Counted from the first letter of the stretch, positions 10,631 to 61,319 are shown. The stretch: 64,000 nucleotides of DNA from Candidatus Methanomethylophilaceae archaeon (GCA_944320495.1 CALUHR010000005.1:224001-288000), one strand, 5' to 3'. Notes: generated by a model not told the origin, from the letters alone. Made by a program: numbers and translations.

Positions 10631-11200
10631 ATGTCCAGCATCCGCGTCGTCCGTCAGAGGATCCAACCCTGGAAGGGGCGCGACTGCACCGCCGAGAGGT
10701 ACTACGTGAACGACTGGGTCGACCGCATCCAGCACAACCTCCTCCTCTACGCCTCCCGGAATCCCGGCACCCCGTCGCTGTCCCTTCTCCGCAAGGTCGG
10801 GAAGGTGTGGTACGACTCCAACGCGGGATGCCACGTCGACGGGATCTTCGACAGCTATCTGGCCCGGTTCATCGCCCGCACCATGGAGGACACCCAGTTC
10901 CTCGAATCCGAGTACAACGTACCCTACGGAACTACCGAGATCGTGGACTGGACGTCGCTCGTCGACGCCGTTCCCATGGAGGAGCGCAACGGGATATGCG
11001 TCTTCAGCCACGGCGGACGCGAGTACCTCGTGGAGCGCGGATACTACGAACACGCCCGCCGCACGATCCAAGCCTACCGTCTGTTCGACGGCACGGTGGA
11101 CTTCGAGACGGAGTCCGCCGACCTGATGGAGCTCGTCCGCAGGCTGATCGGAGACGACGGGCATGAGGGGATCGTGCCGCTGTCGTCGATGTTCTCGCGA
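10631..11200 (+). CDS. Hypothetical protein (ends at CGA 11198-11200; standard-code end 12181)
   Basis: Coding-like codon use for about 190 codons. Beyond the CGA the ORF is antisense to the R-M gene. Confidence 0.65.
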
Positions 11201-11203
11201 CCT

Positions 11204-13501
11204 TCGCACCTTCCCGCCGTAGCTGGCGATCGTCGACTCCCTGCACTCCTTCTCAGCCAGCCTCATGCGGTTGCCCATGTAGCGCCAGTCAGGCACCCCG
11301 TCCCCGGCTGGCAGCGTCAGCCTCAGGTTCAGGAGATCGGAGGCGTTGTCGATGAGGATGTCCTCCCCTCCGATCAGTTTCTTCGCCATGGCGCAGACGA
11401 TGTACTGCTGGACGCTCCTCGGCATCTTCCTCCTGGTGCGGAGGACGATCACCTGCCCGGACGTCTTGAACGGCACCGGCTGGTATGTGACGGCCACGAC
11501 GCGGCGGCCCCTCAGGGAGACGGCGATGCACTCGCCCTTGTGGACATCCCCGTCCGCCGGTGCGAACTTGCCCCACCCGTTGTTGCCCTTCTTCGCGATG
11601 ACCGTCGGGACGGTTCCGGAGACCTTCGGCGGCTTGGCGGAATCCTCCTCGAGGAACCCGTTCGCCTTGTAGTTCGCCGTCTTTATCGTCCTGACCTTGA
11701 ACGACTTCGCCGGTTCGGCGGGGCCGTCGTTGACGACCTCCATTCCGTTGCGTCTCTGTTCGGCGACGAAGTCCAGCCAATCTCTCATGTAAGCCGTTAT
11801 GTCGTCGCCATTCACCCTCGCCCCTTTCTCCGATGGGTTCACCCACCATTCGTCGGGGGCGACATCGACTACCCTGAACAGATTGGATGGCCTATTGTCG
11901 CGAAGTATGTCGATGATGTCGAAAACATCATCAGTCCCCGACGGCGATGCAATCCTGGTAGCGGTCTTGTCGTGCGGTTTCCCCGCCGAGAGATAGACGA
12001 TGCAATGGCGGTCGTCCAGGCGGATCGTGCTCACGAGCCTGTTGTGATCGAGGATGCTGGAGCGGAGTACCCTGCAGCCCTTGGCGTCACCGGACACGGC
12101 CTTCATGGGCACTATTGCGAACACCGTCCCCTCGATGCGTACGGTGTTCAGCATACTGTTGAGCAGAGAAAGAACATCTGAGGGGGACAGATCGCGTTCC
12201 GAGATGTCCGTGACGATATGGTCGGGCCTCTTGTTCCCCGTCGGGAGTTTGTCATCGGGAAATCTGCGGGGGACCACATTGATCCTCCTGGCACCCGATA
12301 GGATGACGTTGAAGATCGCCGTGGTGTACCTCCACGGATCGGACTCCATCCCGTAGATTCCTTTGTTGACCATCTTGTCGGAGCCGCTCCTGCTCTCCGC
12401 CTTGGCACCCACCCTGTAGGAGACCGCCTTGATGAACGCCCCGTCACCGCAGAACGGATCCAGGATGACCTGCCCCGTCACCGGGTTCAGGGTGGACACC
12501 ATCGCCTGCCCGTAGAGTCCCAGGTCGGGTTTCTGACGCTTCTGATCCAGATTGTGTTCCTGGCACTCGGTGAACACGGAATACAGCTGCCCCATCTGCT
12601 CCATGTCCATCTTGTGGATGTACCTGCGCGTCTCTATCGCCAGTCTTCTTATGGGACTTTGGCCGTCTTCGCCCCTTTTGTTCAACCGACCCTCCTTGGT
12701 GAGGGTGTCCAGGATGTCATAGAACACATCCTCCGCTGACCCATCGGTTCCGGGGAAGACTATGCCGAGCTTCCGCAGTGTCGCCTCGGTGTGATCCTTG
12801 AGAATCTTACAGTCGGTGTTGTACGGATCGCCCTTGAGATCGAACTCGCTGTAGGTCTTGTCCAACTTGGCCAGCAGCATCAGGCCCATGAGGACATTCC
12901 GTTCCTCTCTGGACCGCGTCACCTTGTCGAACTTTGTGCGAAGGTCCCTGCAGATCTTGGCAAGTTCCTTGGGATTGTCACTCAGCCCCCTGTATTTCAA
13001 CCCCAGACCGACCGAGATGTAGTCTCTGGCATCGGATTCCGAGAACGCCGTGAAATCCCTGACGGTCCTCTGGGGATCATAGAGGCACGTGTACCCGTCA
13101 GTGTCCAGCTGGCAGATGTACGGCTGGATGTTGAGGACACCTTTCTTCGCGGTGCAGCCGACGGCGATCGCTTGCTTGAACCGCCCGTGTCTCATCACCT
13201 CGCCCGCATAGAAGACGGCCCCGTTGTCCGCATACTTGGCGATTGTCTCGAAATCCATACGGAGATGGTCCGTCTCGTCGACGGAGCGTTGGTAACGCGG
13301 ATCGGCCTTCACCTCCACGATTATCGGAATCCCGTCCGACATGACGACGATGTCTGGGATGCCCTGATGCCCCGACCCCCTCTTGGAGGCCTTCGATAAC
13401 GCCTGGGCGATGCGCTTGTCCTTCGTACCTTCGAACTCCGGCTTCAATCCCGCCTTCTTCATGAGTTCGCCGATCTTGTATGTGACATCGCGCTCGCTCA
13501 A
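11204..13501 (-). CDS. BcgI-like (type IIB) nuclease-methylase-specificity fusion with degenerate MTase motif (ends at CGA; standard-code end 10604)
   Basis: GIPDIVV...IVEVK nuclease motif, KYADNGAVFYA, and motif I ILDPFCGDG. No NPPY: HIVTDISE sits at that position. C-terminal S-subunit-like region (KGNNG...TYQP...PDWRYM). Confidence 0.75.
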
Positions 13502-13787
13502 GGACCACCACGGACCCGATTGATTAGGAGTGCGCGCTTAATTGTTTCGACCTTTTCAAGGCCAGCATCGGCTCGGGTCGGACTCGTACCCCTTCTCCAG
13601 GACGGAGCCTCTCCCGATCTATCTGGCGGAGGGCAGACACAAATTCCACGTCTTCATGAACGGGAAGGAGATCGCCTACACAGACACGGAGATCTACGGC
13701 GACAATGAACTGGTCGTCTGGCAGGAGGGCATCACCGCTCAGACGAGATGCAAATTCTATGAAGGCGGATGGTGAGGGGCAACCCCC

Positions 13788-16225: not shown

Positions 16226-16303
16226 CTCTCTGAATCTCCTTTGCAGTTTGTATCCAAACTGCCATTCTGATTATTTAGATGTTGGCACCGAGAACGAAAT
16301 GAG

Positions 16304-16376
16304 CGCCCTGGCTGGGATTTGAACCCAAGTCGGAGCCTCGACAGGGCTCCATGATAGGCCGCTACACTACCAGGGC
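16304..16376 (-). tRNA. trnD: tRNA-Asp (GUC)
   Basis: Minus strand GCCCTGGTAGTGTAGCGGCCTATCATGGAGCCCTGTCGAGGCTCCGACTTGGGTTCAAATCCCAGCCAGGGCG folds as a cloverleaf with anticodon GTC. A TATA-like CTTATAT lies about 30 nt upstream. Confidence 0.95.
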
Positions 16377-17637: not shown

Positions 17638-17770
17638 TGTTCCAGCCCCCGTAACCCGTTGAAGACTGCCCTTCCGAGATTCGAACGTCCGCATGCGCGG
17701 GCACTGCCCCGGGAGGCGGGAAGTGCGCGAACCTCCGAATCCCCCTTCCGGGGCTTTCGGAGATGAAAGC

Positions 17771-20700: not shown

Positions 20701-20956
20701 GGTCACCGCCACCGGCGCGGACTGGCTCCAGTCCGTGGACGGCAGGGTGATCTCCGGGACCCCCGACAAGGTGGGCACCTACACCATAACCGTGACGGCC
20801 GAGTCCGAGGGCATCACCACCCAGATGTCCTTCGACGTCGTCGTCGGCGAACCCGCCGACGAGGACGACGGCGACGGATTCGACTGGCGCATCGTCGTGC
20901 TCGTGATCATCGGCATCATCGCCGTCATCCTCATCCTGAGGGCCATCCTGGGGTGA
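17771..20956 (+). CDS. Large adhesin-like protein with beta-helix-type repeats
   Basis: Signal peptide, repeated TITGGTF units, Asp/Thr/Gly-rich body and a C-terminal TM anchor. Confidence 0.85.
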   Translation: MKDTARLAVMALVIVCAMAAATVSFQGADADTAADTGSTGAEDFLALADGGSIVLDKDYVLTTALVITGEIEIDIAGHQISNGTSAHTIEVAEGGNLTVTDSVGGGSVTNTSNAKAAVYNAGTAVLNGGTFTRASGTEYYVIQNEGTMTIGDGVSVVRDTETQTSSLVANAAKGPATMTITGGTFTCGPFIAVINHGDGILSISGGTFSPSDAKQSSVQNWGRATISGGTFTAGVYSLSDDENASELTITDGTFSNNVRAQNYVENYMSGDEPASNVAKVTITGGTFNCIKGYVGSYIGGGKTSPMGTTDPSVAILSISGGDFKANVSQFLADDATMLYTNSRYVVTEDVSSAVAKAGGLYFLTLSDALTKAEAGSDIVLLADCEVSSSITVKAHMDIDLAGHAVVGELSTRLINTFNKTVTVTDSVGGGCILNYGTGASIESTDDEPALTIEAGIYSSDVSTYVAEGKDAYEYGGFYVVSIADASDAEIVINGVPFATIEDSLDLINAGAESATFNGTTLTLLRDFDDSAYSITLNTDIVIDGKGHTLKGIITLDADGDGGVYSVTVRDLVMDGDGTLSWAFVGQNQGDGVRPVELTLEDVSISNYVKKGVYLTNVVRLDVSGCSFNDNATAEQTSTVGDYAFDLNLCGVTDVEISIVGTYFGGESGGNGPIKITQRGGVGLTDDTASDITSTKSATIRTVTIEDCVFDVTGSKVGDIIVGSSPNADGTCRTYCQSYDLYIEGTAATVAYRGAVVDGDEQYLRIVLDSTDAFDADGVDGGISMLVKGDVEMYGTIRTSVEVVSLYSVTIPESESLTGTVMFGSDAANGANLNAVTGGQGGLVMSLGSVVLSGNAESGSISIVGHGLAVGRMELGSASLSIPEGSSFSVGRDAALYGSGSVAVAGEMNVYGVVDMYAVTNTGSIVLYEDGDIVPDVVGEEPVKGDAAKLIIYQISTLHADVGEIFRVAVAVSDPDAKVTATGADWLQSVDGRVISGTPDKVGTYTITVTAESEGITTQMSFDVVVGEPADEDDGDGFDWRIVVLVIIGIIAVILILRAILG

Positions 20957-22912: not shown

Positions 22913-23866
22913 GTGATGGATCTCTTGGGACTGTATCCTTTCATCGCCATCGGATGCGCCATATTCGGACTATTCGTGGGCAGCTGGTGCAAACGCCGCA
23001 CCCAGGTGATAGTCCCCTTCAACGATCCCCTCTCGTGGACGTTGCTCCTGATGGTGTTCGTCATCCTGCTGATGCCGGACCTCAAGCCCGAATGGGCGTT
23101 CATCGACCCCTACGACCTCAACCACGACGCCTGCCTGATCGGCTTCTTCGTCATGTACATCTACGGATACTGCAAGGAGGAGCTCCTGATGGAGTTCGTC
23201 TCCGCCCATGACATCTTCAAGCTCAAGCAGGAGATCAAGCCCATCGCCTACTACTTCAACGACGAGGCCCAGCTCTGCTGGCAGCCGCAGTCCATGAGGT
23301 ACGTCCTCAAGAGGCTGATCTTCAACGTCGACAATCCCCTGGACTACGACTTCAGCAACATCAACCGCCGCCGCTTCGTCGAGTTCCAGGGTAAGTTCCT
23401 GAAGATGTCCGCCTATGTGGTGGACACCGCCAAGATGACCGAGAAGGTGGAGTACGTCTACAAGTGGCGTCTCAAGTTCAAGGTCATCAAGCTCCACTTC
23501 GATCCCTCTCCGGTGAACTCCTTCGACATGTACGACTTCTACGTCGAGGGGAAGATCGCCAACGAGTACGTCCAGAACTACCAGCGTCTCAAGGTCCAGA
23601 ACGCCAACTCCTCGGCGGACATGAGGATGGCCAGGATCCTCGGGGTCGTGGACCTCATGGAGGGACTCACTAGCATGACACCCGACGCCGTCGTCATGGA
23701 CCGCCTCATATCCGACATGGACGCCAGGAACGGCGTCACCACCGAGGGCGACGTCCGCCGCGCGGACAGGTCCGGCAAGCAGAGCGCGAAGGCCAGGAAT
23801 CGCGTCCAGCGCATGGCCAGGGAGATGCAGTCCGAGGAGGTGAACGACGATGCCTCTGATGAGCGA
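22913..23866 (+). CDS. Membrane protein of the ATPase operon (ends at CGA 23864-23866; standard-code end 24406)
   Basis: N-terminal TM helices and a soluble C-terminal part. Past the CGA the ORF runs out of frame inside the next gene. Confidence 0.7.
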
Positions 23867-25121: not shown

Positions 25122-25486
25122 GCAACCTGTTCATCCAGGTCACCCCGGACGCCCTCAACGCCTACAACGACCTGAGGTACTACTACTCCGTCGGCGACTA
25201 CAACGCCACCTACCTCCGCGTCTTCGAGACCTATCTCAGCCCCCTGTTCAAGGAGGACTTCCTCGTGAAGGACAAGCTCTACGAGGAGGTCTCCCGCCTC
25301 TATCCCCTGCCGGACGAGGACGACGACTGCCAGTACATCTCCGCCAGGGCCTACCTGCTCTACATGAGGGCGTACGAGAAGATCATGCGCCAGAAGGGCA
25401 TCATCGGCGGATGGGACGACGGCGAGGCCGTGGCCGAGCAGACCGACATGAGGGTCATCGACCCGATGGTGGAGTACAGGAGGCGA
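25118..25486 (+). CDS. Hypothetical protein (ends at CGA 25484-25486; standard-code end 25552)
   Basis: ATGA coupling to the upstream gene; CGATG junction with the next gene. Confidence 0.7.
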
Positions 25487-25782
25487 TGCCGATGGACTAC
25501 CACACCAACATGGTCGGATACGTCGGCAGGCTCCGCATCGTCAGCCCCATAAGGCTCGACATGTCCGTCGACGGCAACGGCCTCTGCCGTGTCCTCGAAC
25601 CCGACATGCGCCTTGACGGCATCGGCACCTGCCCGGACGAGGCCCTCAACGAGTTCATGGGCGAGGTCCTCTTCGCCTGGGACGCCTTCGTTAAGGATGA
25701 TATCGGCAAGTTGGATGACTCTGCCAAAGAACTCCGCTCGTGGCTTCTCTCCCACTTCGAGGAGATCGGGGGTGAGAGCCGA
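25486..25782 (+). CDS. HicB-like protein (ends at CGA 25780-25782; standard-code end 26061)
   Basis: IVSPIRL...LDGIGTCPDEALNEF...LRSWLLSH pattern, GGAGG RBS, CGATG junction. Confidence 0.6.
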
Positions 25783-27488
25783 TGGAGGACGTGGAGGCGT
25801 GGGAATGGCACGAGCAGCACCGTCTCGGAAGGAAGATCATCGGCGACATCTACGTCGAGGACGCCTTCGATCCCGATTCCGATGGGCCGGAGGACGACGA
25901 CATCGACTTCGAGGATGACGTCCTCGGATTCGATCCCGAAACAGCCGAGCAGCAGCAGGACGAGGTACCTGTCCCCGAGTGGATCAACTCCGCCATCGAC
26001 GTGGACAAGCTCATGTCGGACATCTTCCGCCCCGGCACCAACCACGTCACCGACGGGATGAGGGGCGGAGGCAAGACCCATCAGGCCGTCGCCTACACCG
26101 AATACATGGTGGAGGGCCGCTTCAAGGGGATGCCACGCGTCATCATGCTCACCAACATCATCTTCGTCAAGAGGGTGAGCTTCGAGGGCGACCTCGAGGA
26201 TCAGTTCGTCATGGAGGACCCGCCCGGCGTCCACCACGTCACCAGCATGGAGCAGATGTTCCGCATACAGACGAAGATGATGAGGCGCTACGGCAGGGAG
26301 GGCGTGATGTTCATGCTCGTGCTCGACGAGGCGCAGAACTTCCTGTTGGCGGACGAGTACCAGCAGGACACCTCCATCGCCTTCATCAAGTTCTACGGGA
26401 CCACCAGGAAGTTCAACACCTGCATCTGGCTCCTGACCCCTTCGATCAACAACCTCCCTCCCAGGGCCAGGAACTTCCTCGATGCGGACCCCGCCGGCTA
26501 CGTCTCCTGCCAGTGGAGGAAGAACAAGCAGCTCGCCGCCCAGTACATCGCGGCCAACCACATAGAGAACGCCGATGTCCGCGAGTTCACCACCATGAAG
26601 ATGGGTGCCAACATGGCCCCCGTCTGGTTCAGGATAACCACGACACCGTGGACGCGCCCCCTTGAGGAGTTGGGAATAGGCGAGTACGGCTACGACCATC
26701 TCGCCAACGCCGACTTCAAGGTCAGCATCGACGACAACAACCCCTTCGACTTCAAGGCGTTCATGGAGGCGACCTCGGACATGCCCTCCTACCGCATGGC
26801 GACGGTCATGCAGGAGTTCTTCGACAGGATGGACGGCAAGTCCGCCGACCCGGACGCGCCCCCCGAGGACGACCCCAAGGCCGAGAGGACGGCAGAGATC
26901 CTCAGGATGAGGGAAATCGGCCTGACCTTCGATCAGATAGAGTTCGTCACGGGGGTGGCGGCATCGACCTGCCGCTATTGGATCAACAGATACGGCTCCG
27001 CAAATCCGGCCGCACAAGCGGCCGACAGTCCCAAGGGGGCGGGGGGCGGAGACCCCGCCCAACCCAAGCGCGGGAACCGCTCTAGGAATACTCCTAGAGT
27101 GGGTTCCCGCGCGGGTAAGAAGGGGCTGAAAACACCTCCGAAAAGGCTGAAGAGGGACTCTGCTCTAGAAAAGCTAGAGTTGCTGAAAAATGACACAGCC
27201 AGATCTTTGAGCAGCAGCAACGCAACCACCCCGTTTTCGCGCCCTTATATGTATAATCCTAGAGAGGGGGAGGAGGACGGGGGGTCTCGCGGAAAGTTGC
27301 CGATTGACCCCCAACCGGTTGGCGGACGGTTGGCAGCCGAGACACCCCTAGAGGGGGAGGATTCGGCTGACCTAAACCATGATGAGGATGAATCGTTCGA
27401 CGACGGGGTATGGGGCTACGGCGAAGATGGGGGATCCGATGACGGGGAACCCTACGACGTCGGGGAGGAATACGAAGAGGCGGAGCGA
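25782..27488 (+). CDS. Zot/pleolipovirus-type P-loop ATPase with C-terminal HTH and disordered tail (CGA 27486; standard-code end 27506)
   Basis: Walker A GMRGGGKT, LTNI, Walker B MLVLDEAQ, GTTRK motif, and HTH LTFDQIEFVTGVAASTCRYW. Confidence 0.8.
27068..27112. other. Long inverted repeat within the ATPase tail region
   Basis: GCGCGGGAACCGCTCTAGGA-ATAC-TCCTAGAGTGGGTTCCCGCGC. Confidence 0.8.
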
Positions 27489-27509: not shown

Positions 27510-28610
27510 ATGAGGGATGGGAAGATGAGCAACAGCAAACGGAAGGATGACGACCCGCTCTCCTACGGGAGCGTGATGGCCGTGTGGATGGGGAAGTCCT
27601 ACCGCATCCCCGTCGATGCGGACGGATACGTGCCCATGGAGGCCCTGGTCATGCGCTATCAGCAGATGGGGAACAACGGAAGGGACAAGGGAAGGGACTC
27701 GGACATAGTGTTCCCCTCCCATGTCAGGCCGAAGGAGATCGTCAGATGGTGGGCGGACCCGTCCTCGTGCGACATCGAGGGCATCGACACCCGCGACTCC
27801 AAGGTGTACGACGTCTCCGGCCTGAAGGGAAGGCGCATGAAGGCCGCCCAGAGGAAGATCGGGATAGTCACCCCTTCCGCCGACGAACAGAGACGCATAC
27901 GCAGGATCCTCTCGGAGGCGTTCACCGCCGCCGAGCTGGACGCCATGACGAGGGAGGGGTCCTTCGTCATCCGCACCCGCCCGAACTGCGGGAGCGTGAT
28001 GGGATACTACCTCAGGAAGGCCGACGGCCAGGAGATCCCCCTCATAACCTTGGAGGAGGGCGTGTCCCCGGACACCGTCGTCCACGAGACCGTCCACCAC
28101 GCAAGGACGTGCAGGAGGTCGGGCAAGTACACCAGGACGGCGTTCCCCATGAAGGGCGGAAGGCTGGACGAGGCGTACTACGGACTGAGCCAGCAGCAGC
28201 GCGACATGATCAACGACGCCGAGGAGACGGAGACGACAGCCGAGGCGACAGCGAGGACCAAGAGGGACCCCTGCCCCACCGGGTATTGGGACAATGTCGG
28301 CGGAAGGGAGGCGTACATCCGCGACAAGACCGCCCTCGCAAGGTCGTGCGGCGGAGGGGACTGCACCCTGAAGGGGGCCAAGGCCGTCAGGACCGTGGAG
28401 AAGCAGTACGACAAGCTGGACATCGCGATGGCGTCTATCATGGCTGACGTCCCCGCGAAGGAGTCCGCCGCGAGGATCGCCAAGGGTTCCGCGTCCGGTA
28501 GGCCGAAGACGAAGACGGCAGCAACAGCGAAATCCAAGAGCCAGACTCCGAAGAAGACCACGAAGGCAAAGAGCCAGACATCCAAAACCAAGGGGAAAGG
28601 GACGAGGCGA
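27510..28610 (+). CDS. SDIxGID-family domain plus HExxH metallopeptidase-like domain and basic tail (CGA 28608; standard-code end 28658)
   Basis: WWADPSSCDIEGID, VVHETVHH and a K-rich tail ending KGKGTR. Confidence 0.7.
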
Positions 28611-31136: not shown

Positions 31137-31640
31137 TTGTCAATCCAACTCGGGGATTGGATGCGCAGAATATCGTTGATTCGCAGAAGGAAGGCGGTGT
31201 CGGAATCCAGACGCTATGATGCCACCACGAGGAGCTGCGTGAACAGGATCATCAGGGACAACATGGTCATCAACGGGTTCCCAGAGGGTGACCCGGAGGT
31301 GGACGGCCCGAGATTCGTTCGCTACGAGGGTGCCATACAGGGGCTGTGCGATGCCCTGATGATGGACTCCGATCCGGTGGCCAGGGCGGCGGTATGCCTG
31401 GATTACATCCTGAACATGCATCCGTTCGTCGATGGGAACAAGCGCACCGGGCTGGCAGTCGCCTCCAGATTCATAACGTCGGCGCACCGCAGACTTCCGC
31501 TCGATGATGAGGACACCTATCTCTTCGTCAGGCGGATAGCGGCCGAAGGGCTGACGAGATACGAGATCGAGGCTTGGCTGCGCGAGAACACGGTCGGCAA
31601 TCCTTCAGCTTCGAGAAGACGTACTGGAAATGGTCCATGA
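31137..31640 (+). CDS. doc: Fic/Doc family toxin
   Basis: Canonical HPFVDGNKRTG motif. Confidence 0.9.
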   Translation: MSIQLGDWMRRISLIRRRKAVSESRRYDATTRSCVNRIIRDNMVINGFPEGDPEVDGPRFVRYEGAIQGLCDALMMDSDPVARAAVCLDYILNMHPFVDGNKRTGLAVASRFITSAHRRLPLDDEDTYLFVRRIAAEGLTRYEIEAWLRENTVGNPSASRRRTGNGP

Positions 31641-33485: not shown

Positions 33486-33487
33486 CC

Positions 33488-33928: not shown

Positions 33929-33930
33929 CA

Positions 33931-34368: not shown

Positions 34369-34369
34369 C

Positions 34370-34750: not shown

Positions 34751-34752
34751 CC

Positions 34753-36540: not shown

Positions 36541-36935
36541 CCGGCTCCGACTGGGCCAACTACGAGACGTGGCTCGTCCACGTCCACATGTTCAACGAAG
36601 AGTCCGTGCGGAAGGAGTTCCGCTCCGCCCTCGAGAAGAGGGCCAAGGAGGGGCTGGACCGCCGCACGGTCCGTGACATCGTCACGCATGATGTCCAGGC
36701 TTTCGTGGAGGAGACCGCCGAGGAGGCGTCCCGGCGCGTCCGCAACCCCATGATAGCCGATTTCATCGGATCCTTCCCGGGACGCATAGACTGCTCCCAG
36801 ATTGCCGACTCGTGGATGGAGGTCTACGACGGCATCGCCGCGGAGCAGGTGACATCCAGGTCCCCTTCCAAAGGGACCGCTCGCAACACACCGACGAGGA
36901 AGGGACAGAGGTCCCGCGCCCAGAGGTCGAGACGA
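36537..36935 (+). CDS. Array gene 9, NYETW family (ends at CGA 36933; standard-code end 36989)
   Basis: DWANYETWLVHVHMFNEE; the CGA lies just before the next gene's GGAGGTG RBS. Confidence 0.75.
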
Positions 36936-41596: not shown

Positions 41597-42903
41597 CCGC
41601 ACCCAGGCGCAGAGCATCCTCGAGGTCCGCCCGCTACGCGGGGGACCTCCCCAAGAGGATCCGCGACCACCCGTACCTGTCCGTCCCGGGAGGCGTCCTC
41701 CGCCTCCCCGACGGGACAAGGGTGTACGCCGAGTCGGACATCGAGCTCCTCGATGGCCAGGACGAGGGTCTCGTCTACTTCTGGACGGACGCGGTCGACG
41801 AGGAGGGCGGATACTACGGCATCGCGTTCTCCTTCGAACTCGACGAGCTCATGAGGACCCCCTGGAACAAGGTGGACTGGCAGGGACACATCGACGACGT
41901 GACCTACGAGCCGCCCGAGAGCGGTTCCAAAAAGCCCAGATCCAAGACCAAAGTCTCAAAGAGGCCCGTCTCCAAGTCCTCCAAGCCCCGCGTCTTCACC
42001 GTGGCCGATTGGGACGCGGGGAGGATCGGGGAGATGAGGCCCGGCGACGGGCTCGACAGGGAGCTGTACGACGGACTCCGCTGGAACGGCTACCCCTACC
42101 CCGCCGACCCCCGCGTCCTGGCGGCCAACGGTTGCATCCGCGGGTACTGTCTGGGGAAGGTCAGCGATAGGGGCAACTACACCTACGGCGAGACCCCCGA
42201 CGGGAGATACGTCTACCTCGGTCTCTCGATCCCGCTGGACGAGACGCCCTACACCATGGCCCTGTCCAACCCGAACAGCCTCGATTCCCGCTACGACGCC
42301 CGCGTCGCCGCGAAGGAGGTCGAGGCCGAGGAGAGACGCCAGAGGGAGTGGGCCAAGGATCCCCGCTCCAAGTACGTCGATGTGGACGAGTGCAGGATCT
42401 ACGGGGCCGTCGAGACGTTCGACGACCTCGTGGAATACTACACGCTCTTCAACCCGGAGTATGCGGAGCGTCTCCGCGACCCCGAGGTCGTTGGGTATCT
42501 GAGGGACTACTACGCCCACATGGACTGGGTGAGCCACGGGAACGGACCCAGCTACGACGAGGACGTGGACGGGGAGACGATGCTCAGCCATCTGTACGAC
42601 CTCACCGAGGAGGCCGAGTCGTTCCAGACGGAGTTCATGGAGGACGAGTACGAGAACGGCGACACCGACATGCTGGACTTCCTCAGACGCCGTGCGGCGA
42701 TCCAGAGGAGGTACGGAGTCGAACCAGACTGGAAGGATTCTTCCAGTGGTTCCAGGAAGGGCAAGACACCCTCCAAGGCGTCCAAGCCCAAGGCACCTGT
42801 CAGGAAGGCCGCCCCCAAGGCGGCCTCCAAGACCACCAAGCCGAAAGCGAAGACTCCCGCCAAGAGGCCCGCCGCCAAGCCCAAGACAAAGGGGGCGAGG
42901 CGA
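41593..42903 (+). CDS. Array gene 17, fused cassettes (ends at CGA 42901; standard-code end 43023)
   Basis: Internal tail remnant near aa 112-135 plus a terminal tail; CGATG junction. Confidence 0.75.
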
Positions 42904-43523
42904 TGGGCACGTCCAACTACGCCCACGACACCAGCTTCCTCGTATGGGCCTTCGAGTACGAGCCCGACGAGGACTGGTACCGCGAGGAGTTCCCCGACGA
43001 GTCCGACGACTCGATCCACCTGATGATGGCCGAGGACCGCGACATGGAGTACAGGCAGGTCGAGAAGGCCGTCCAGCCCATGCTGGACCGCCTCAACTCC
43101 GATCTCCTGTTCCACAGACTGGGTATCCGCTCCGGGTACTACGACGGCATCCAGGTCTATGTCGACGAGCCGTCCCAGGACAGGTGGCTGGTGCCGGAGC
43201 TCCGCGATGCCTGGGAGGAGATGTACGGCGAGGACTCCGTCCCCGACGACACCAGACTCCTCGGCGTCTACGCCGACGAGCGCACCCGCATCAGGAAGTG
43301 GCTGAGGGACAACCTGCCCCGGCTCGGGTTCCATGCCCTGAGGTACACCTCTCCGTGGACGATCGAGCGCGTGGAGAATCCCAGCAGGAGGGCGTCCAAG
43401 CCGAAGGCGAAGAACCCCGCAAAGAGGTCCAGGCCGAAGGAATCGTCCAAGACGGTCAAACCGAAGACTAAGCCCAAGAACCAAGAGAAGAACTCTGGAA
43501 CTAAGTCCAGAAAGAGGTTCCGA
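42903..43523 (+). CDS. Array gene 18 (ends at CGA 43521; standard-code end 43568)
   Basis: MGTSNY start, acidic core, basic tail and CGAcATG junction. Confidence 0.75.
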
Positions 43524-43524
43524 C

Positions 43525-46286: not shown

Positions 46287-46327
46287 ACACCAAGCCGGAG
46301 AGGAAGGTCTGGACATCCCCCGACGGG

Positions 46328-51255: not shown

Positions 51256-51612
51256 ATGTACATTAGCGAGGAGGAGGAGGCCCGTCGCCTCGCGGAGATC
51301 AAGCGGTTCTGCGATGCGAACGGGATCCACGCGTCGAAGACGTTCGATTCGTACTACTTCACGATGCGCGGCCATCGGTACCGCGTGTCCAACCACACGG
51401 TGGAGGCATCCAACCGCCACGCCTACGACAGGGCCGGGCGGAAGCGCAGGGAGCTGTACCATCCCGACGGGAGGGAGGACGGCGTCACATACATCCACGC
51501 CAGCAGGTACCGCATCATCAGGATCTACCTGGACCTCAAGCTCGGCGCGAAGCTGGACGGACGCGGGCGCGTCGTGGGGTACACCTACCGCGGGAACGGA
51601 GGGGGCAGACGA
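51256..51612 (+). CDS. Hypothetical protein (ends at CGA 51610; standard-code end 51624 at TAG)
   Basis: RYRVSNH motif; CGATG junction. Confidence 0.7.
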
Positions 51613-52076
51613 TGGCCGTCATAGTCCGCGCCCCCGCAGACTCCGCTCCCACGTCAGTGCGCTGCTGGAACTGCCGGAGGAGGGGGCTGTCCAAGCCCCG
51701 CTCCCGTACGCTGTCCCCCGGGAGGGAGGACGGCGTGTACGCCTGCTCCGAGTGCGGCGCGCTCACGTCCATCCGCTCCACCCGCGGGGACCTGATCTGG
51801 GCGAGCGACGACGGGATGTGGGCCATCAGCACCGACGTGGACTGGAGTCGTCTCTTGGCCAGGAGGCCGGGGGCGAGGTTCGCCCTCGAGATCCAGTCCG
51901 CCGACGGACGGCGCATCCCCGCGTTCTCCGAGGGGCGCGGGATCCTCACGCTCTCCCCGATCCCTTCCGACGCACCGTCCGAGCTCCTCCAGGCCGTCAC
52001 GTTCTACATGCGCTCCCAGCAGAGGTCCTCCCCGCCCGAGGGGAAGTCCGTACGCGGGATCCTCAGGAGGCACCGA
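51612..52076 (+). CDS. Zinc-ribbon protein (ends at CGA 52074; standard-code end 52094)
   Basis: CWNC and CSEC cysteine pairs; the CGA lies 1 nt before the next TTG start. Confidence 0.65.
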
Positions 52077-52688: not shown

Positions 52689-53006
52689 TCGCTGAATCCC
52701 CCTCCGGTACTCGTTCAGGTAGTAGTCCAGCGCGTAGTCGCAGATGTCCGATCTCGCCATCAGCCCCATCGCGACGATCCCGTCTACGACGGCCTCGTCC
52801 AGACGCACCTGTATGGACTTCCCCTCACCGCGCCTCACCAGCTCCACGGACGTCGGCCGCTCCCTCCTGAGGCGGTCGTAGTAGGCCCTCATGGCGAAGC
52901 GGAGCAACTCGGAGATGTTCTCGAACTCGCCCGTCTCGATCAGGTGTTGGCACTGCGTGTATCTCTCTAGCCGTACCGTCACGGTCATCGGCACCTTGCA
53001 TCCCAT
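52689..53006 (-). CDS. Tandem ribbon-helix-helix regulator (ends at CGA; standard-code end 52620)
   Basis: TVTVRL...ISELLRFAMR and SIQVRL...SDICDYAL; divergent from the integrase across an AT-rich spacer. Confidence 0.7.
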
Positions 53007-53132
53007 GATTACCTACATTTGTTATTATATTAAATACATTTGTAATTAGAATCTGCCGAAGTATAAGCACAAATGTCATTAAAATAATGACAAATGTAAC
53101 TATTAAATATGGCACAGCCGAATCCGTAGGGC

Positions 53133-54158
53133 ATGGAAGCAAGAACATTCCTCAAGCAGTATGAATGTCAAATGAGCGTTGCGTGGAACGAGAAGCGCCG
53201 CAATTGGCCCGCCATCGGATCCGTCCCCCGTGGAGAGTATCTCTTTCCCGACACCGTCGAGGAGGACCTCCAGGCATGGTGGAGGCACCTGATTGATAGC
53301 AACATCAACTGGCATACGGTCAAGGCCAACTGGGCCGCCACCCGCAGATGCATCAAGCTCCTCATGGACGCAGGATTGAACTACGAGGCTTACGCCGTCG
53401 ATAGAGATGACATCATCTTTCTCAGAGAGGACGGTTTCGCTGGCCTCTCCCCCGACACCGTCAAGTGGTACATCATGCTCTTCGGGCGCTACCTGAAGTT
53501 CAACGGGAACTCGGTGATTGACGGCATGGATCTCCATTGGCAGAACTCGGACGTCCATCCCGGCAAGGACTGGCTGGAGAGGGAACAGGCCGCCGTTCTC
53601 ATGGCCTGCGACGGCTATACCGTCCACGAACGCACGGCACTCGTTCTGATGTTGACTATGGGACTCCGTAGGATCGAGGTCCTCAGGCTGAGGGTGGATG
53701 GCATCACCGACGACGGTGTCATAGTGTGCGGTAAGGGGCACGGCGGCGGGAAGTACCGCTTCGTGCCGTACTCCAAGGGCGCAAGGCTCCAGATCCAGGA
53801 GATGCTCCGCTGGAGGGAGATGCAGATCTCCGACGAGAGGGATCTCGACCCCGACTACGAACCTGATCCGGAGTTGTTCCTCACCCAGACGAGGCACCCG
53901 CATCACTACAATGAGGCGGGTACGGGGTTTGACAAGAGTATCCTGAGAGGCATACGCGATAAGTCGGGGGTGGAGTTCTCCAACCACACGTTGAGGAGGA
54001 CGTTTGCCAGGCTGACCTACTTCGAGAACCCCACAGAGAGGACGCTGGAGATACTGGCCAGCATCCTGGGCCACGAGGACACGAAGGTCACGCTCCGCTA
54101 CATTGGGGTGTCCGAGGACGAGAAGTCCGACGTCATGCTCAGCCAGAGCTGGTTCCGA
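53133..54158 (+). CDS. Tyrosine recombinase/integrase (ends at CGA 54156; standard-code end 54176)
   Basis: Catalytic set GLRRIE, HTLRR, LGH and TLRY. Confidence 0.92.
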
Positions 54159-54160
54159 TC

Positions 54161-55333: not shown

Positions 55334-57169
55334 TCGGACCCTTCCCGCCACGGCGAGATCCGCGAGCCTGTCACGGCTGGCGCGATAGGAGTCCACCACC
55401 CCTGCCACGCCGTCCAGGAAGTCGGAGTCCGCAGAGGACAGCCCCAACCCATCCTGTGGGTCGGCCCCGTCCAGGAGCCTGACGGCGGCCTCCCTGGCCT
55501 CCGGGCCCGCGTCACGAGCGGAGCGGTACGCGGCGGCGCATCTGGCCGCCAGGTCGTCCAACGAGTCCGCGAGGGCCTCCAGCTCGGGGGACGGCTCCCT
55601 CTCGGCGTTCATGGCGATCTTCCTGGACACCGCCGCGGACTTCACGACGCAGTTGGCCTCCGCCTCGTCGTCGGGATTCCCGCGGAGCGAGGACATCAGG
55701 CAGGAGACGTGCTCCCTCGCGAGCGCCAGATGCCTGGCCGCCAGGTCCAGCGTCTCCTGCCCGAGACGGTACGGCAGGACGACGAAGTTGGCCAGCGTTG
55801 CGACGGCCACGCCCGCGAGTATGTACAGGACCCTCTCGGTCACGACGGTGTCCGTCGGGACGGCCATGCTCGCCGCTATCAGCGCGGAGACGGTGACGAA
55901 AGCCATCTGGACATCGTACCTCTTGGGATCGAGGACGGTGTAGACGTAGTTGATCAGCATCAGCGCGGCCGACATCAGGGCCACGTCCGAACCGGTGAGC
56001 GCGGCCAGCGCCATGAACGCCACGGCCCCGACCAGGGTCCCCGCGACCCTGCGAACGGACTTCTGCATCGATCCGTCCACGTAGGGCTGCACTATGGCCA
56101 CGGTGGTGAACAGCAGCCACTTCGCGTTCTCCAGGTCCCAGTGCCGCCAGACGAACGCCCACATCGCGAAGAGCAGGGTCATGCGGACGGCGAAGGTGAA
56201 CCTGACGGAGTCGACCCTCAGGTCCTCCCTGAGGCGGACGCCCATGGCGCGCACGGGCGGCCTCCCTCCGGGGAAGGACGCACTCGCCCCGGAGAGCCTC
56301 GACAGGGCGTCGTCCACGGCCGCGACGGCGGACATCATCAACGGGTCCGCCCCGCGGTTGGAGGACCGGACATCCGCGTATGTGGCGCGGAAGTCCTCCA
56401 GGGACGCTTTCCCGGCCTCATGGTCGGCCAGGATGTCCATCAGCGACGCCACGCCCTCCAGGAGCCTCGGATCCGCTTCCGGTGAGCACACCCTGCGGCC
56501 GAGTCCCCTGACAGCGACCATCAGATCCAGCAGGGAGCGGTCCGCCGGCGTCGTGAAGAAGTTGGACTTCAGGCGGTCGCCAAGAGCGGCGCCCAGGCCC
56601 TTGCAGGATGCGTCGAAGGCGGAGGCGTCGGGATGCCCTCCGGAGGCCGCGTCCCTCGCCGCGGATGCGACGGCGCGGCACAGGGCCTCCATGCCCCTGT
56701 GGGACGTCATCTCGAAGCGCCTACGGTTCACGACCCAGTTCATCCCCACCACGAGCACGGATCCGACGGCCAGCGCCAGCAACCTCACGGGCAGCTGCTC
56801 CGCCGTGACCGGCACGGCGAGCATGAATGCGTAGCCGAGCATGAACGGGAAGTGCATGGGGGACGCCAGGTCCTGCAGGGTGAGGAACACAACTGCGAAC
56901 ACCAGGACCAGGTTCAGCACCAGACCGAGGTACTCGTCCGTGAGGGATGCGTATGCGCACAGCCCCATCGCGAGGTTCAGCCCGAGTATCCCTCCGAGGT
57001 TGACCAGCGGACGGGCCGAGAGGTCCCTCTGGAGCAGCATCAGGGCCATCACAACGATGACCACCCCCACCAGCGAGTTCTCCTGACCGAAAACGGACGA
57101 GAACCCCGCTATGAAGATGACCATCACCGCGAAGAACACGGTCTTGCCTGCTATCGTCTTGGCGTCCAT
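55334..57169 (-). CDS. FUSC family membrane protein (ends at CGA; standard-code end 55277)
   Basis: Two TM blocks, WLLFTTVAIVQPY...RVAGTLVG and ERVLYILAG. Confidence 0.85.
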
Positions 57170-57238
57170 AGTGATTTTGAGCGCAATCAAATCCTGTATT
57201 TAACAGGAGACGATGACAGGAACGACGGAATCGGCGGA

Positions 57239-58801: not shown

Positions 58802-59071
58802 TCGGCCCTCCGTCCTGTACCTTCTCAGGGGGAGGTAGCACGCCGGGATCCTCGGCAGCGCCTTCGGCACGAAGCTGCCGTCGAGGATGTCCTCGATCAT
58901 CGCCTCCTCCCTGACCTCATACCTCTTCGGTATGAACCGGCGGGTCTCGTTGTCGACCCTGCCCACGTATATCCTGTCCGACACCGGGCTCCTCTTCTCC
59001 GGGACCCTGCAGGAGCGGCACTCGTAGATGTACGTGTAGCGGCCCTTCACGATGCGGACGATGTAGACCAT
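58802..59071 (-). pseudogene. Short ORF resembling a transposase N-terminus (ends at CGA; standard-code end 58739)
   Basis: KGRYTYIYE...IYVGRVDNET resembles IS1634-like N-termini; no DDE domain. Confidence 0.4.
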
Positions 59072-59244
59072 GGCATGGTGTCATCGATGGCTGTATATCA
59101 GCCTTGTCCGCGGGATTGTAGTTACCACCAGGATGCATCCAGCCTCATTATCCGTCCATATGGGCCCGCGGATGCGCACCTCTTCAAATACCGTGCACGA
59201 TTGGAGCAGTTCCGCGGCCATCAGAGGCCGAGGAGTGAACAGAG

Positions 59245-60210
59245 ATGGTGTTCATCAGATACCAGCACGTGGAGCGCCTCGACGCCGACGAGGCGGAGGG
59301 GCTCCTCGAGGGGAGATGCCACGTCTTCCCGAAGATGGACGGCTCGAACATGTGCGCCTACCTGGAGGACGGGGAGGTCCGCACCATGAGCAGGAACAAG
59401 GTGATCGGCCCTCCGGAGCCGTTCGCAGTGTTCGTTGCATCCCACGAGAACATAGCCAGGTTCCTGAGGGACTTCCCGGGGCTGCGCCTCTACGGGGAGT
59501 GGATGGTCCCGCACACCGTGAAGTCCTACGTCCCGGAGATATGGAACCGCTGGCTCATCTTCGACGTGACCACCGAGGACCCCTCGAGGACGTATCCTCT
59601 GAAGAACGGCGGAGCCCTCGACTGCGCCGGCAGGACGTACATCCCATACGAGGAGTACGCTCCGATACTCGGGATGTACGGCATCGAGTGCATCCCGCCC
59701 CTGGCGGTGATCGAGAACCCGGACCCGAAGGAGCTCGGGCGCATAGCCGACGAGGACAACACGTGGATGGTGGCCGAGGGCGCCGGATGCGGCGAGGGCG
59801 TTGTCGTGAAGAGGTACGACTTCACCAACAGGTACGGCAGGGCCGTGTGGGCCAAGGTGCTGAACTCCAGGTTCTGCGTGTTCAAGATCGCCGGCAGGGC
59901 GAGCAGGAACGAGGAGAAGCGCGACGGCACCAGCGTGGAGCACGAGATCGCCCTCAGGTACGTGACCCAGGACCTGGTGGACAAGGAGTACTCCAGGATC
60001 CTCGCGGAATCGGAGTCCAGGAACGTTCAGGGGCAGCTGCTCGGGACCGTCTGGCACTGCCTGGTCACGGAGTGCCTCTGGGACGCGGTCAAACGCTTCG
60101 GCTCGCCGACCGTGGACTTCAAGCTGCTGCGCAGGGAGTGCGATGTCCGCACCAAGATGATCCGTCCGGAGGCCTTCGGCCTCAGGGTCATGGAGGTAGC
60201 GGACGAGTGA
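59245..60210 (+). CDS. RNA ligase family (Rnl2-like) nucleotidyltransferase
   Basis: Motif I PKMDGSN, LYGEW, IFDV, GEGVVVK and WAKV. Confidence 0.85.
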   Translation: MVFIRYQHVERLDADEAEGLLEGRCHVFPKMDGSNMCAYLEDGEVRTMSRNKVIGPPEPFAVFVASHENIARFLRDFPGLRLYGEWMVPHTVKSYVPEIWNRWLIFDVTTEDPSRTYPLKNGGALDCAGRTYIPYEEYAPILGMYGIECIPPLAVIENPDPKELGRIADEDNTWMVAEGAGCGEGVVVKRYDFTNRYGRAVWAKVLNSRFCVFKIAGRASRNEEKRDGTSVEHEIALRYVTQDLVDKEYSRILAESESRNVQGQLLGTVWHCLVTECLWDAVKRFGSPTVDFKLLRRECDVRTKMIRPEAFGLRVMEVADE

Positions 60211-60323
60211 ATCACCAGCGGGGGCGGGGAGGGGTGTAAGGAACGCCGCCCCTCCCCGGATTACCCATGATTTGACAAAAACGAGAAACCCATTCACTGT
60301 CGTCAGAGGAGCGGATGCTCCGA

Positions 60324-61319
60324 TCGGAGCTTGTGGACGTCGATCGAGTACACGCTCATCGTCGGGGAGTAGGTCTTCAGCTCCGAGGTCTCGAGGGAGA
60401 TGGAATGCCCGTCCTCGGCGGCCATGGCCGCCATCTCCTCGCACAGCTTCGGGAAGTCGTCCCTCTCGATGATCTTGTACATGTGGACGGTGCCTCCCCT
60501 TTTGAGATGTGACAGAGCCAGCGGGAGGAACCTGTCCGCGATCTGCGGGAGGTTCATGATGATGCGGTCGGCCATCGGCAGGGTCGGGACGACGAGCGTG
60601 GCGTCGCCAGTGATCGGCTCCAGCACGTCGCAGCGGTTGTCCTTCCTGTTCATCAGCGCGAAGCGCTCCGTATCGGGATTCAGGTCGATCGAGTACACGG
60701 CGGAAGGCTTCGCGGCCCTGCAGATCTGGACCCCGAAGGGCGCCACACCGGCGAACATGTCGATAACAATCTCCCCTTCCTTGACCTGGGAGGCTATCCT
60801 GTGCCTCTCGCCGGCCAGCCTCGGGTTGAAGTAGACAACCGCTGGGTCGGTGTGCATCCTGGCTCCGAACTCCCTGTGGACCGTCTCAGACGGACCCTCG
60901 CCGGCGATGAGCTCCAGGTCCCTGACCCTCAGCTCGCCCTTGACGCCGGAATCCAGGAAGACGCAGCGGAGGCTGTGGTTGGCGCGCATCATGGCGGCGC
61001 CGATGTCGGATCTGAAGGGCATCAGCTCGTCCGGGAGCTTGATCATGCCCACGTCGCCCACGACATCGAAGGACGACGGCAGCATGTCGGACAGCCCCTC
61101 GGGCAGCGTCAGGAGCTCCCTGTAGTCGCCGACGGGACGCTCCTGCGGGCGTAGCTCCGCCTCGCACATCTCCATGCCCTCCACATCGGAGGTCACCGGG
61201 ATCAGCAGGAAGCCGTCCTCGGAGCCGATCCTGTGTGCCGTGTCCAGCAGACCGGCCTCGAGGATCCTGGCCCTCGCCGACTCGCCCTCGGCCTTCGGTA
61301 CCCTGACGCATCTGACCAT
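60324..61319 (-). CDS. trm5: Trm5/Taw2-family tRNA methyltransferase (ends at CGA; standard-code end 60303)
   Basis: SFDVVGD, VYFNPRL, DMFAGVAPF and IIMNLP motifs. Confidence 0.9.

Follow-up and report, generated by a model that had tools for sequence, protein, structure and literature searches.

The codon CGA very probably terminates translation, alongside TGA and the rarely used TAA, both in the Candidatus Methanomethylophilaceae genome analysed here, that of a gut methanogen, and across its genus, and genes end at CGA far beyond chance. The reading that we favour, with a probability of roughly 0.8 on the sequence evidence, is that CGA is a leaky, dual-use stop codon at which the release factor aRF1 competes with a weakened tRNA-Arg(UCG), and that the aRF1 gene regulates itself through this same codon. 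If true, this would represent the first sense-to-stop change of a genetic code outside organelles.

The starting point was a window, that is, the whole stretch of 64,000 nucleotides under analysis, for which a sequence-only reading had proposed that CGA behaves like a stop codon. All 18 of the listed sites carry an in-frame CGA on the expected strand (Table 1), in host genes and in an integrated element alike, and the standard-code frames past these codons would run for 3 to 326 further codons across neighbouring genes. The four CGATG junctions and the hairpin behind the integrase CGA were found as described, as was the CGAcATG at 43521, which mirrors a TGAcATG at 34366; the Phage_integrase domain of the integrase is complete before its CGA (profile positions 2-169 of 172). 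With CGA as a stop, the + strand genes between 22.9 and 50.6 kb tile without long overlaps. The CGA at 28608 had also been noted as a possible second Arg of a GxRR tail and can indeed be so read, but the lack of a stop in the next 15 codons speaks against it. Of the 50 window genes at least 80 aa long, TGA ends 33, CGA 16 and TAA one; none contains an internal CGA and, as the sequence-only reading had it, none ends in TAG. Its guess that the DNA derives from Methanomassiliicoccales was also right.

Table 1. In-frame CGA codons at gene ends in the window
Feature	Position	Strand	Remarks
CGA terminator, 189-aa gene 10631-11200	11198..11200	+	standard-code frame would extend 326 further codons
CGA terminator, 765-aa N6-methylase-like gene 11204-13501	11204..11206	-	standard-code frame would extend 199 further codons
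CGA terminator, gene 22913-23866	23864..23866	+	standard-code frame would extend 179 further codons, across next gene
CGA terminator, genes 25118-25486 / 25486-25782	25484..25486	+	CGATG stop-start overlap
CGA terminator, genes 25486-25782 / 25782-27488	25780..25782	+	CGATG stop-start overlap
CGA terminator, Zot-like ATPase gene 25782-27488	27486..27488	+	
CGA terminator, gene 27510-28610	28608..28610	+	alternatively second Arg of GxRR tail (see text)
CGA ending weak putative 84-aa ORF 31594-31848	31594..31596	-	in-frame CGA seen at coordinate
CGA terminator, gene 36537-36935	36933..36935	+	followed by GGGGAGG and ATG of next gene at 36956
CGA terminator, genes 41593-42903 / 42903-43523	42901..42903	+	CGATG overlap
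CGA terminator in CGAcATG	43521..43523	+	upstream of gene 43525-44466
CGA terminator, genes 51256-51612 / 51612-52076	51610..51612	+	CGATG overlap
CGA terminator, gene 51612-52076	52074..52076	+	next gene starts at 52078
CGA terminator, gene 52689-53018	52689..52691	-	followed by CCGAATCC/GGATTCG hairpin
CGA terminator, integrase 53109-54158	54156..54158	+	CCCTCAAC/GTTGAGGG hairpin directly 3'
CGA terminator, FUSC-family gene 55334-57190	55334..55336	-	kept in independent metagenome
CGA terminator, 89-aa gene 58802-59071	58802..58804	-	kept in independent metagenome
CGA terminator, Trm5 (60324-61340)	60324..60326	-	relatives' orthologues have TGA/TAA at or within a few codons

Genome-wide, we scored whether coding continues in the same frame after a codon that follows 40 codons with the signature of a sense frame (GC3 >= 0.85, GC1 > GC2). 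The coding signal falls off after CGA just as it does after TGA: continuation was seen after 5 of 233 CGAs (2.1%), 33 of 727 TGAs (4.5%) and 1 of 25 TAAs (4%), as compared to 50-81% for all sense codons other than CGA and 20% for TAG. Gene ends in the genome comprise 1019 TGA, 365 CGA (about 26%) and 46 TAA (n = 1430 genes), with CGA stops on every contig and CGATG start overlaps making up 21% of the CGA ends. Under the standard code, CGA would be merely a very rare Arg codon, and these ends would be chance or stop-loss extensions, or T-to-C errors of sequencing or assembly. It is true that with GC3 near 0.9 all A-ending codons are rare in this genome, and that CGA is frequent off-frame and therefore soon met after any lost stop; however, the equally rare CTA, CAA, TTA and CCA are followed by continued coding in 52-71% of cases, as against 2% for CGA. 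A miscall specific to the motif is likewise not indicated, since TGATC is as common as CGATC.

Orthologues bear on the same question. Most of the CGA ends compared have TGA or TAA at the corresponding position in relatives: in eight same-genus and two other-genus genomes, most CGA ends of G000 have an aligned TGA or TAA no more than 3 codons away, most Trm5 orthologues of relatives stop with TGA or TAA either exactly at the CGA or only a few codons from it, and within the genus TGA and CGA interchange at gene ends, with direct CGA-to-TGA codon alignments. CGA thus stands at the stop position of homologues, which speaks against the standard code, and it is absent from conserved internal positions save in aRF1 and gmhA-gmhB. 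In seven same-genus genomes, 0-1 internal CGAs were counted per 15-27 thousand aligned codons, and 24 further loci, about 40 thousand codons in all, contained none, as compared to 7 per 23 thousand and 11 per 14 thousand codons in two other genera, where they mostly align to Arg; to judge from these alignments, CGA is decoded as Arg in neighbouring genera. In contigs from a separate study the CGAs at 55334 and 58802 are conserved while other bases differ (13 of them in the contig that keeps 55334, from an independent metagenome), and CGA depletion together with terminal use is seen again in dozens of genomes assembled independently of one another, some of them complete. Loss of the ordinary Arg role of CGA is, on this comparative evidence, a genus-wide trait, and we regard the standard-code explanation, errors included, as close to untenable.

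The gene for tRNA-Arg(UCG), whose presence the sequence-only reading had named as part of what could overturn its proposal, was found, but with its 31-39 pair broken. It is retained in nearly every same-genus genome examined and its anticodon arm is damaged in all cases, the 31-39 pair being non-Watson-Crick in 12 of these genomes and U33 being replaced by C33 in 3 more; in 12 genomes from other genera the tRNA is normal, and in G164 it was not found. The retained tRNA looks chargeable (A20, C35, G36), and we infer that it is weakened as a decoder of CGA. CGG is an ordinary codon here, read by tRNA(CCG). An unassigned codon, of which CGG in Mycoplasma capricolum is an example, would be near-absent and without a tRNA, a description that does not fit a codon found in frame at 365 gene ends and with its tRNA gene present.

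Genome-wide, the claim that CGA is missing inside genes held with two exceptions, each a single conserved codon, and the conserved internal Arg CGAs that might have counted against a stop role are otherwise nearly absent. The first exception lies in aRF1 itself. At codon 78, which corresponds to human R81, a universally conserved Arg, 51 of the 53 genomes from the genus have CGA, always preceded by a rare T-ending codon, while the other Arg codons of the gene vary; at this position CGA must still be decoded as an amino acid. G162 has AGA there and a CGA at codon 11 instead, whereas G164 has CGC and is the only genome in which aRF1 lacks an in-frame CGA altogether (52 of 53 have one somewhere), and it is also the genome in which the tRNA was not found. 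The second exception is a gmhA-gmhB fusion whose junction codon is CGA in 11 same-genus genomes and TAG in 2; in 18 genomes from other genera an ordinary sense codon stands there. The junction is not followed by a start codon, and CGA is very probably decoded there as an amino acid. The internal CGAs lie in different contexts (CT-CGA-CT in aRF1, CAG-CGA-GCG in gmhAB, GCC-CGA-TAT in G162), and no RNA structure conserved around those of aRF1 and gmhA-gmhB was detected. In G164, 40-41% of genes end in CGA, the most among the genomes, and the terminator of aRF1 is one of them; with both internal CGAs replaced as well, this species seems to have completed the change, although the genome is 87% complete and the link between loss of the tRNA and loss of the aRF1 CGA derives from G164 alone. 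The proposed sense-to-stop reassignment is strongly supported as regards the terminator role (coding signal, orthologues, internal loss, independent DNA), but the change is not a clean one.

These exceptions also bear on the suggestion that C-to-U editing of the mRNA turns terminal CGAs into ordinary UGA stops. CGA and TGA are one transition apart and interchange between orthologues, as such editing would allow, but it would have to spare the gmhAB junction as well as the in-frame CGA that is essential in aRF1, and for the latter reason it is unlikely; moreover, terminal CGAs stand in diverse contexts, no G-to-A or C-to-T stands at a CGA site among the changes listed for RNA contigs over the window (a weak indication, since contigs drop variants), and editing would not account for the damage to tRNA-Arg(UCG) that is specific to the genus. 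We know of no C-to-U editing of archaeal mRNA, and consider it highly improbable here.

How, then, might a protein be released at CGA? The sequence-only reading had advised a look for changes in the aRF1 motifs NIKS and YxCxxxF: both motifs and the E55 equivalent are unchanged, no change was found at the residues known to read the first base of the stop codon, and the sole fixed genus difference near those residues in domain N is a D/E to N/S replacement adjoining the E55 equivalent. In the mechanism that we propose, an aRF1 with unchanged motifs would treat CGA as a near-cognate of UGA and release the peptide there, which would be possible because its sole competitor, tRNA-Arg(UCG), has been weakened by the broken 31-39 pair or by the change of U33 to C. 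Such competition would make CGA leaky and dual-use, and some read-through may occur at ordinary CGA ends, given the retained tRNA and the decoding in aRF1. The CGA early in the aRF1 gene could then act as a feedback sensor, abundant aRF1 leading to less aRF1 synthesis. That aRF1 is the agent of termination at CGA is slightly better than an even bet, and we give the feedback loop the same odds.

Alternatively, CGA might be a "hungry", effectively unassigned codon at which ribosomes stall for want of a good tRNA and are resolved not by aRF1 but by the general pathway for stalled ribosomes, Pelota/aDom34 and ABCE1 followed by the peptidyl-tRNA hydrolase Pth2. The unchanged codon-reading motifs of aRF1, the damaged anticodon arm of every tRNA-Arg(UCG) examined in the genus and the presence of a Pelota gene would all suit such a scenario, as would the moderate tendency of highly codon-biased genes to avoid CGA ends (17% versus 31%), which fits slow termination, although we count it in favour of our main reading as well. 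Against this, rescue for a quarter to 40% of genes, among them those for aRF1 (in G164) and Pelota (in G000), seems costly, the CGATG coupling to a following gene resembles ordinary termination-reinitiation, and a selected in-frame CGA in aRF1 makes regulatory sense only if aRF1 acts on CGA; we judge rescue unlikely but still a live competitor as a mechanism. Rescue and release by aRF1 predict the same protein end before CGA and differ only in the agent.

Termination by aRF1 with feedback through its own gene would have a familiar counterpart in bacterial release factor 2, whose gene (prfB) is autoregulated through an in-frame UGA and requires a +1 frameshift and a Shine-Dalgarno-like stimulator. 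As in prfB, a conserved codon at which the factor would act stands in frame early in the factor's own gene, so that its abundance could set its synthesis. Unlike prfB, the arrangement proposed for aRF1 has neither a frameshift site nor a stimulatory element that we could find: the frame is unchanged across the CGA, no conserved covarying structure was found, and simple read-through by the cognate tRNA would suffice.

Sense-to-stop changes are known from mitochondria: UCA and UCG in Sphaeropleales green algae, UUR in Pycnococcus and AGA/AGG in vertebrates, the algal cases correlating with changes in the release factor mtRF1a (PMC6821328). Here too a sense codon is lost from within genes and turns up again at their ends, along a path that resembles codon capture; the cognate tRNA is lost or disabled in those cases and seems weakened here. 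However, those are tiny organellar genomes of a dozen or so genes, as compared to a free-living cell with about 1,800; aRF1, unlike algal mtRF1a, lacks changes in the known codon-reading motifs; and the tRNA is retained, with the codon still read at chosen sites. A biochemical parallel exists in yeast, where eRF1/eRF3, competing with tRNA-Arg, can release the peptide at CGA and where UGA-biased eRF1 variants do so better (Wada and Ito 2018, PMC7379694). In both systems a factor of the eRF1 family would meet CGA as a near-cognate of UGA against a poorly decoding tRNA-Arg, and the UGA bias of the yeast variants is paralleled by this archaeal family, whose stops are almost only UGA; but in yeast CGA is an ordinary sense codon and release there only a minor side reaction, whereas here a quarter of all proteins would normally end in this way.

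Among archaea, a recent preprint describes two hydrothermal-vent assemblies in which CGG encodes Trp and recognisable domains lack CGA, for which the author suggests, in passing and with gene ends untested, a possible stop role (Melnykov 2026, bioRxiv 10.64898/2026.04.02.715157). Those genomes have about 50% GC, no tRNA-Arg(UCG) and a reassigned CGG, whereas here CGG is ordinary, tRNA(UCG) has been retained and the gene ends themselves were put to the test. A further comparison is with genetic code 34, in which all TAG encode pyrrolysine and for which Methanomethylophilus is named, in a paper that describes a stop-to-sense change and leaves CGA unmentioned (Kivenson et al., bioRxiv 10.1101/2024.09.30.615893). 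In line with this code, and in the same family, TAG is not a terminator in our genome: the coding signal drops after 5 of the 59 TAGs that follow sense-like windows, those 5 resembling non-coding frames, and a few TAGs sit inside plausible genes; ARAGORN called no CUA tRNA. TAG even takes the place of CGA at the gmhA-gmhB junction in the two genomes mentioned above, and the change in CGA would thus be the reverse kind of reassignment, sense to stop rather than stop to sense, in the same organisms.

At the level of sequence, genes in this genome do end at CGA. The sequence-only reading had named 18 sites in the window where CGA behaves like a stop, and all 18 proved to be in-frame CGA codons on the strand given; the four CGATG junctions that it listed, the CGAcATG junction with its TGAcATG counterpart, and the hairpin following the integrase CGA were likewise recovered, and a second CGA is also followed by a hairpin. 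Its claim that ending genes at CGA removes overlaps is upheld: under the standard code the frames extend 3 to 326 codons over their neighbours, and with CGA as a stop the genes tile. By Pfam, the Trm5, integrase and FUSC proteins of the window are all complete ahead of the CGA. In our own gene list for the window 33 genes end in TGA, 16 in CGA and one in TAA, with no internal CGA and no gene ending in TAG, as had been asserted for both. The absence of internal CGA is true of the window and fails genome-wide, where there is one in the gene for the release factor aRF1 (codon 78) and one at the junction of gmhA and gmhB.

Coordinates of the features discussed, as positions in the window unless a contig (C5 or C13) of the genome under study, G000, is named
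Position (strand)	Feature	Detail
16303-16376 (-)	tRNA-Asp(GUC)	other copy at G000:C5:105505-105578
17612, 22777, 28823, 30848, 51171	50-nt motif, five copies	core GGTTCATAAACGGTTCCCATC; upstream of element gene blocks
17693-20956 (+)	1087-aa gene	internal 69-nt repeats, five copies from 18303 to 18632, encoding ...TI[TS]GGTF...
25484, 25780, 42901, 51610	CGATG junctions	
32600-46300 (+)	~30 small paralogous genes	tightly packed
34366	TGAcATG junction	
43521	CGAcATG junction	
50843-50996	31-nt repeat, three copies	palindromic core CCCCGC...GCGGGG; spacing 61-62 nt
52689 (-)	gene-terminal CGA	hairpin directly after
53109-54158 (+)	integrase	
54156	integrase CGA	hairpin directly after
G000:C5:178082-179083 (+)	accessory membrane protein gene, outside the window	in-frame CGA at residue 218
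G000:C13:193621-194700 (-)	gmhA and gmhB, outside the window	single reading frame in the family

The window and its integrated element have several further features. Most of the small paralogous genes encode a Lys/Pro/Ser/Ala-rich end, ...SKPKSKG[VA]RR, and they carry the ribosome-binding site GGGGTGAGGAG and an ATGA stop-start overlap with the following gene; none has a match in Pfam or PHROGs, and for the element proteins as a whole these databases gave only weak Zot-like ATPase, integrase and methylase-like matches. The 50-nt motif looks like a repeated archaeal promoter, the 31-nt repeats might represent either a very small CRISPR-like array or a group of binding sites, and the 1087-aa product is likely to be a surface protein of the beta-helix or adhesin-like type. 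Close to one side of the element there is the tRNA-Asp(GUC) gene, with the integrase on the opposite side; no att repeats were found.

The window covers positions 224001-288000 of contig C5 in the 1.77-Mb, 14-contig, 62% GC assembly of G000, whose true reading frames have a GC3 near 0.9 and GC1 above GC2. Each codon preceded by 40 codons with this sense signature (high GC3, GC1 > GC2) was scored for coding beyond it in the same frame. Coding continued past 2.1% of 233 CGA sites, as compared to 4.5% of 727 TGA sites, 4% of 25 TAA sites and 50-81% for all other sense codons, a group to which CTA, CAA, TTA and CCA belong, each as rare as CGA. Followed codon by codon, GC3 falls in a step at CGA just as at TGA. 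Among 1430 genes of at least 80 aa, TGA ends 1019, CGA 365 and TAA 46, and the CGA ends are found on all contigs; they are less used where codon bias is strongest, at 17% in the top GC3 decile compared with 31% among the lowest 40%. A TGA or TAA lies no more than 10 codons downstream of 26% of CGA ends versus 18% of TGA ends, and such backup stops, confounded as they are by frame composition, are suggestive of leakiness.

For TAG, same-frame coding lay beyond 20% of 59 sites. Under the full filter TAG is rare, it occurs inside a few plausible genes and coding is practically never lost after it, which fits the code reported for the family, in which all TAG is pyrrolysine. A filter on GC3 alone had made TAG appear to be a common sense codon (2,600-5,000 sites), an artefact that arose because one antisense frame has the same high GC3 and that disappeared once GC1 > GC2 was added. 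Only TAG interrupts this mimicking frame. Because GC3 is ~0.9, long open antisense frames run throughout the genome, with 1105 ORFs of at least 400 aa whose summed length exceeds that of the genome.

That the CGA ends reflect chance or artefact is contradicted by the coding test, by orthologue stops and by independent DNA. The sequence-only reading had asked whether orthologues carry TGA or TAA where these genes carry CGA, and this is the case: most Trm5 orthologues in relatives end ...D[IV]xK[LV] and then TGA or TAA at the window's CGA codon or a few codons off, and two other genomes have CGA at the same end. With the proteins of G000 aligned to 100-128 kb from each of eight same-genus and two other-genus genomes, most CGA ends match a TGA or TAA within three codons; TGA and CGA have been swapped in both directions among same-genus orthologues, and conserved DNA shows codon-level alignments of CGA to TGA. 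As to independent DNA, the organism is present in chicken-gut metagenomes from several studies, and the CGAs at 55334 and 58802 are unchanged in contigs of a different study in which other nearby bases differ. The pattern is repeated in dozens of independently assembled genomes, including complete single-contig ones, and TGATC is as frequent as CGATC, which argues against a motif-specific T-to-C miscall.

Judged from the genomes compared, the CGA-end trait is genus-wide, and with it go an altered tRNA and two conserved internal CGAs.

Internal CGA per aligned codons and CGA share among orthologous gene ends in genomes of the genus
Genome	Internal CGA	CGA ends
G031	1 per 21.6 thousand	0/50
G100	0 per 26.7 thousand	3%
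G070	0 per 23.8 thousand	7%
G085	1 per 14.7 thousand	8%
G052	1 per 26.7 thousand	10%
G078	1 per 21.6 thousand	15%
G000		26% (share of all called genes)
G164	0 per 21.1 thousand	41%

A further 24 same-genus loci contain no internal CGA in ~40 thousand codons. In the two other-genus genomes we counted 7 internal CGAs per 23 thousand codons and 11 per 14 thousand, most of them opposite Arg, and only TGA and TAA at the positions of the G000 CGA ends. By these counts, CGA would first have been rare in the family, then gone at the base of the genus, and then back as a terminator to a varying degree. A screen of alignments running across a CGA, in which off-frame conservation of the DNA predominated, gave no convincing case besides gmhAB and one accessory gene. 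In homologues of the latter the CGA position is Phe, Ser or Ala, followed by a transmembrane helix; it may be a third site at which CGA is read, or the gene may be broken or recently truncated.

The simplest expectation, that tRNA-Arg(UCG) would be missing, did not hold: the gene is present in G000, with the 31-39 pair beside the anticodon loop broken. Alignment and a covariance-model search found a Watson-Crick or G-U pair at this position in none of 12 same-genus genomes; most have C.A, with A.A in G000, G117, G121 and G162 and U.C in G078. Three further genomes of the genus (G085, G090 and G105) have the loop CCUCGAC, in which C33 replaces U33, a residue near-universal in tRNA. Their genes (loci L196, L189 and L190, respectively) also have a C.C mismatch at 27-43. 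A pattern search that missed the C33 variant had pointed to loss of the tRNA in these three genomes, and the covariance-model search found it in all of them. In 12 genomes of other genera the 31-39 pair is normal and the loop is CUUCGGA or CUUCGAA. The remainder of the same-genus tRNA is well preserved, including A20, C35 and G36, and we infer that it would be an attenuated yet retained decoder. G164 is the sole genome in which the covariance model found no tRNA-Arg(UCG), in an assembly that is 87% complete.

G000 has one aRF1 gene and one Pelota gene, the latter terminated by CGA. Changes in the codon-recognition motifs of aRF1 had been named in the sequence-only reading as something to look for; NIKS, E55, Y125, C127 and F131 are all present. 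In alignment with human eRF1 (offset 3), the only genus-specific change near the codon-reading residues replaces D/E by N/S at the position equivalent to D54. Codon 78, the only in-frame CGA of the G000 gene, encodes the Arg of ...SIAA-R-LK... (human R81), which is conserved among archaeal and eukaryotic release factors. An aRF1 cut at residue 77 would be nonfunctional, so the ribosome must insert an amino acid at this CGA. The codon is CGA in all of the first 16 same-genus genomes and in 51 of all 53; among 14 other-genus genomes it is CGC, CGT, AGA or AGG in 12 and CGA in two. Each of the first 16 also has a rare T-ending codon (GCT or TCT) ahead of the CGA, and across them nearby synonymous sites and other Arg codons of the gene vary. 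In G162 codon 78 is AGA, and the gene has a CGA at codon 11 instead, a position occupied by Arg or Lys in orthologues. G164, with the highest CGA stop share among the genomes compared, has GCC CGC at codons 77-78, no in-frame CGA, and CGA as the terminator of the gene. The residue equivalent to L123 of yeast eRF1 is M in G164; G117 shares this M, which is thus not a specific marker.

Retention of an in-frame CGA by selection would make sense in this gene if aRF1 itself acts on CGA. Alternatively, ribosomes might stall at CGA and be rescued by Pelota/ABCE1/Pth2, which is possible and is a poorer fit to the conservation of the aRF1 codon. C-to-U editing, by which a terminal CGA would be made UGA, would need to leave the aRF1 CGA untouched, and to our knowledge there is no precedent for editing of such a kind. 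Contigs of one metatranscriptome compared with the window have no change at the CGA sites among those listed, with cover at 55334 and 58802 thin where listed and with contigs that drop variants. The aRF1 CGA is followed by +4 C, like leaky eukaryotic contexts. A common read-through motif cannot be claimed, because the contexts of the CGAs in gmhAB and G162 differ from it, and RNAalifold found no covariation-supported structure around either the aRF1 CGA or the gmhAB one.

At the gmhA-gmhB junction, 18 other-genus genomes have AAG, AAA, AGA or GGC. Within the genus only "special" codons occur there: 11 genomes have CGA, and the other two, G109 and G164, have TAG. In G164, with no tRNA-Arg(UCG) detected, the CGA is replaced by TAG and not by an ordinary codon. 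The junction is not followed by a start codon, and GmhB's catalytic DRDD motif starts five residues further on. This suggests the junction as a candidate for programmed partial read-through.

We propose that, when the competitor tRNA is weak, aRF1 would accept CGA as near-cognate to UGA and end translation there. In the whole reading, which is tentative and to which we assign a probability of about 0.4, CGA would be a leaky fourth stop with its strength set by a co-evolving attenuated tRNA-Arg(UCG) and aRF1; aRF1 would gauge its own activity via the CGA in its gene, gmhA-gmhB would give two products by programmed CGA/TAG read-through, and the genus would hold each stage between dual use and completion in G164, this last step being argued from one genome, 87% complete.

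If true, this would be a free-living cell with a sense-to-stop change, and thus a large genome able to capture a sense codon for termination. The genus comprises gut methanogens in chickens, ruminants and probably humans, and appears to hold living intermediates, with a weakened tRNA, dual codon use and one lineage apparently complete, so that codon capture versus an ambiguous intermediate could be tested within one genus. As to mechanism, our reading points to an unmodified eRF1-type factor terminating at a C-initial codon, and as to regulation it suggests that archaea may have a new kind of feedback control over the synthesis of their release factor. In practice, standard gene callers would overextend about one quarter of the proteins of G000 into neighbouring genes, and many C-termini in public protein sets, and the domain statistics drawn on them, would therefore be wrong for these archaea.

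In the literature searched, sense-to-stop changes are described only for mitochondria (PMC6821328), and screens of the Codetta type cannot infer stops. A 2026 preprint on two vent archaea, unrelated to this genus, suggests that CGA might serve them as a stop (bioRxiv 10.64898/2026.04.02.715157), the code 34 paper of Kivenson et al. makes no mention of CGA (bioRxiv 10.1101/2024.09.30.615893), and searches on Methanomethylophilus with CGA and on Methanomassiliicoccales with release factor returned nothing relevant. A biochemical comparison can be made with yeast eRF1, which has measurable release at CGA, stronger in UGA-biased variants (Wada and Ito 2018, PMC7379694); in the Methanomethylophilaceae, UGA is nearly the sole stop used. 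A CGA within the aRF1 gene would follow the same logic as the bacterial release-factor gene prfB, with its own in-frame UGA.
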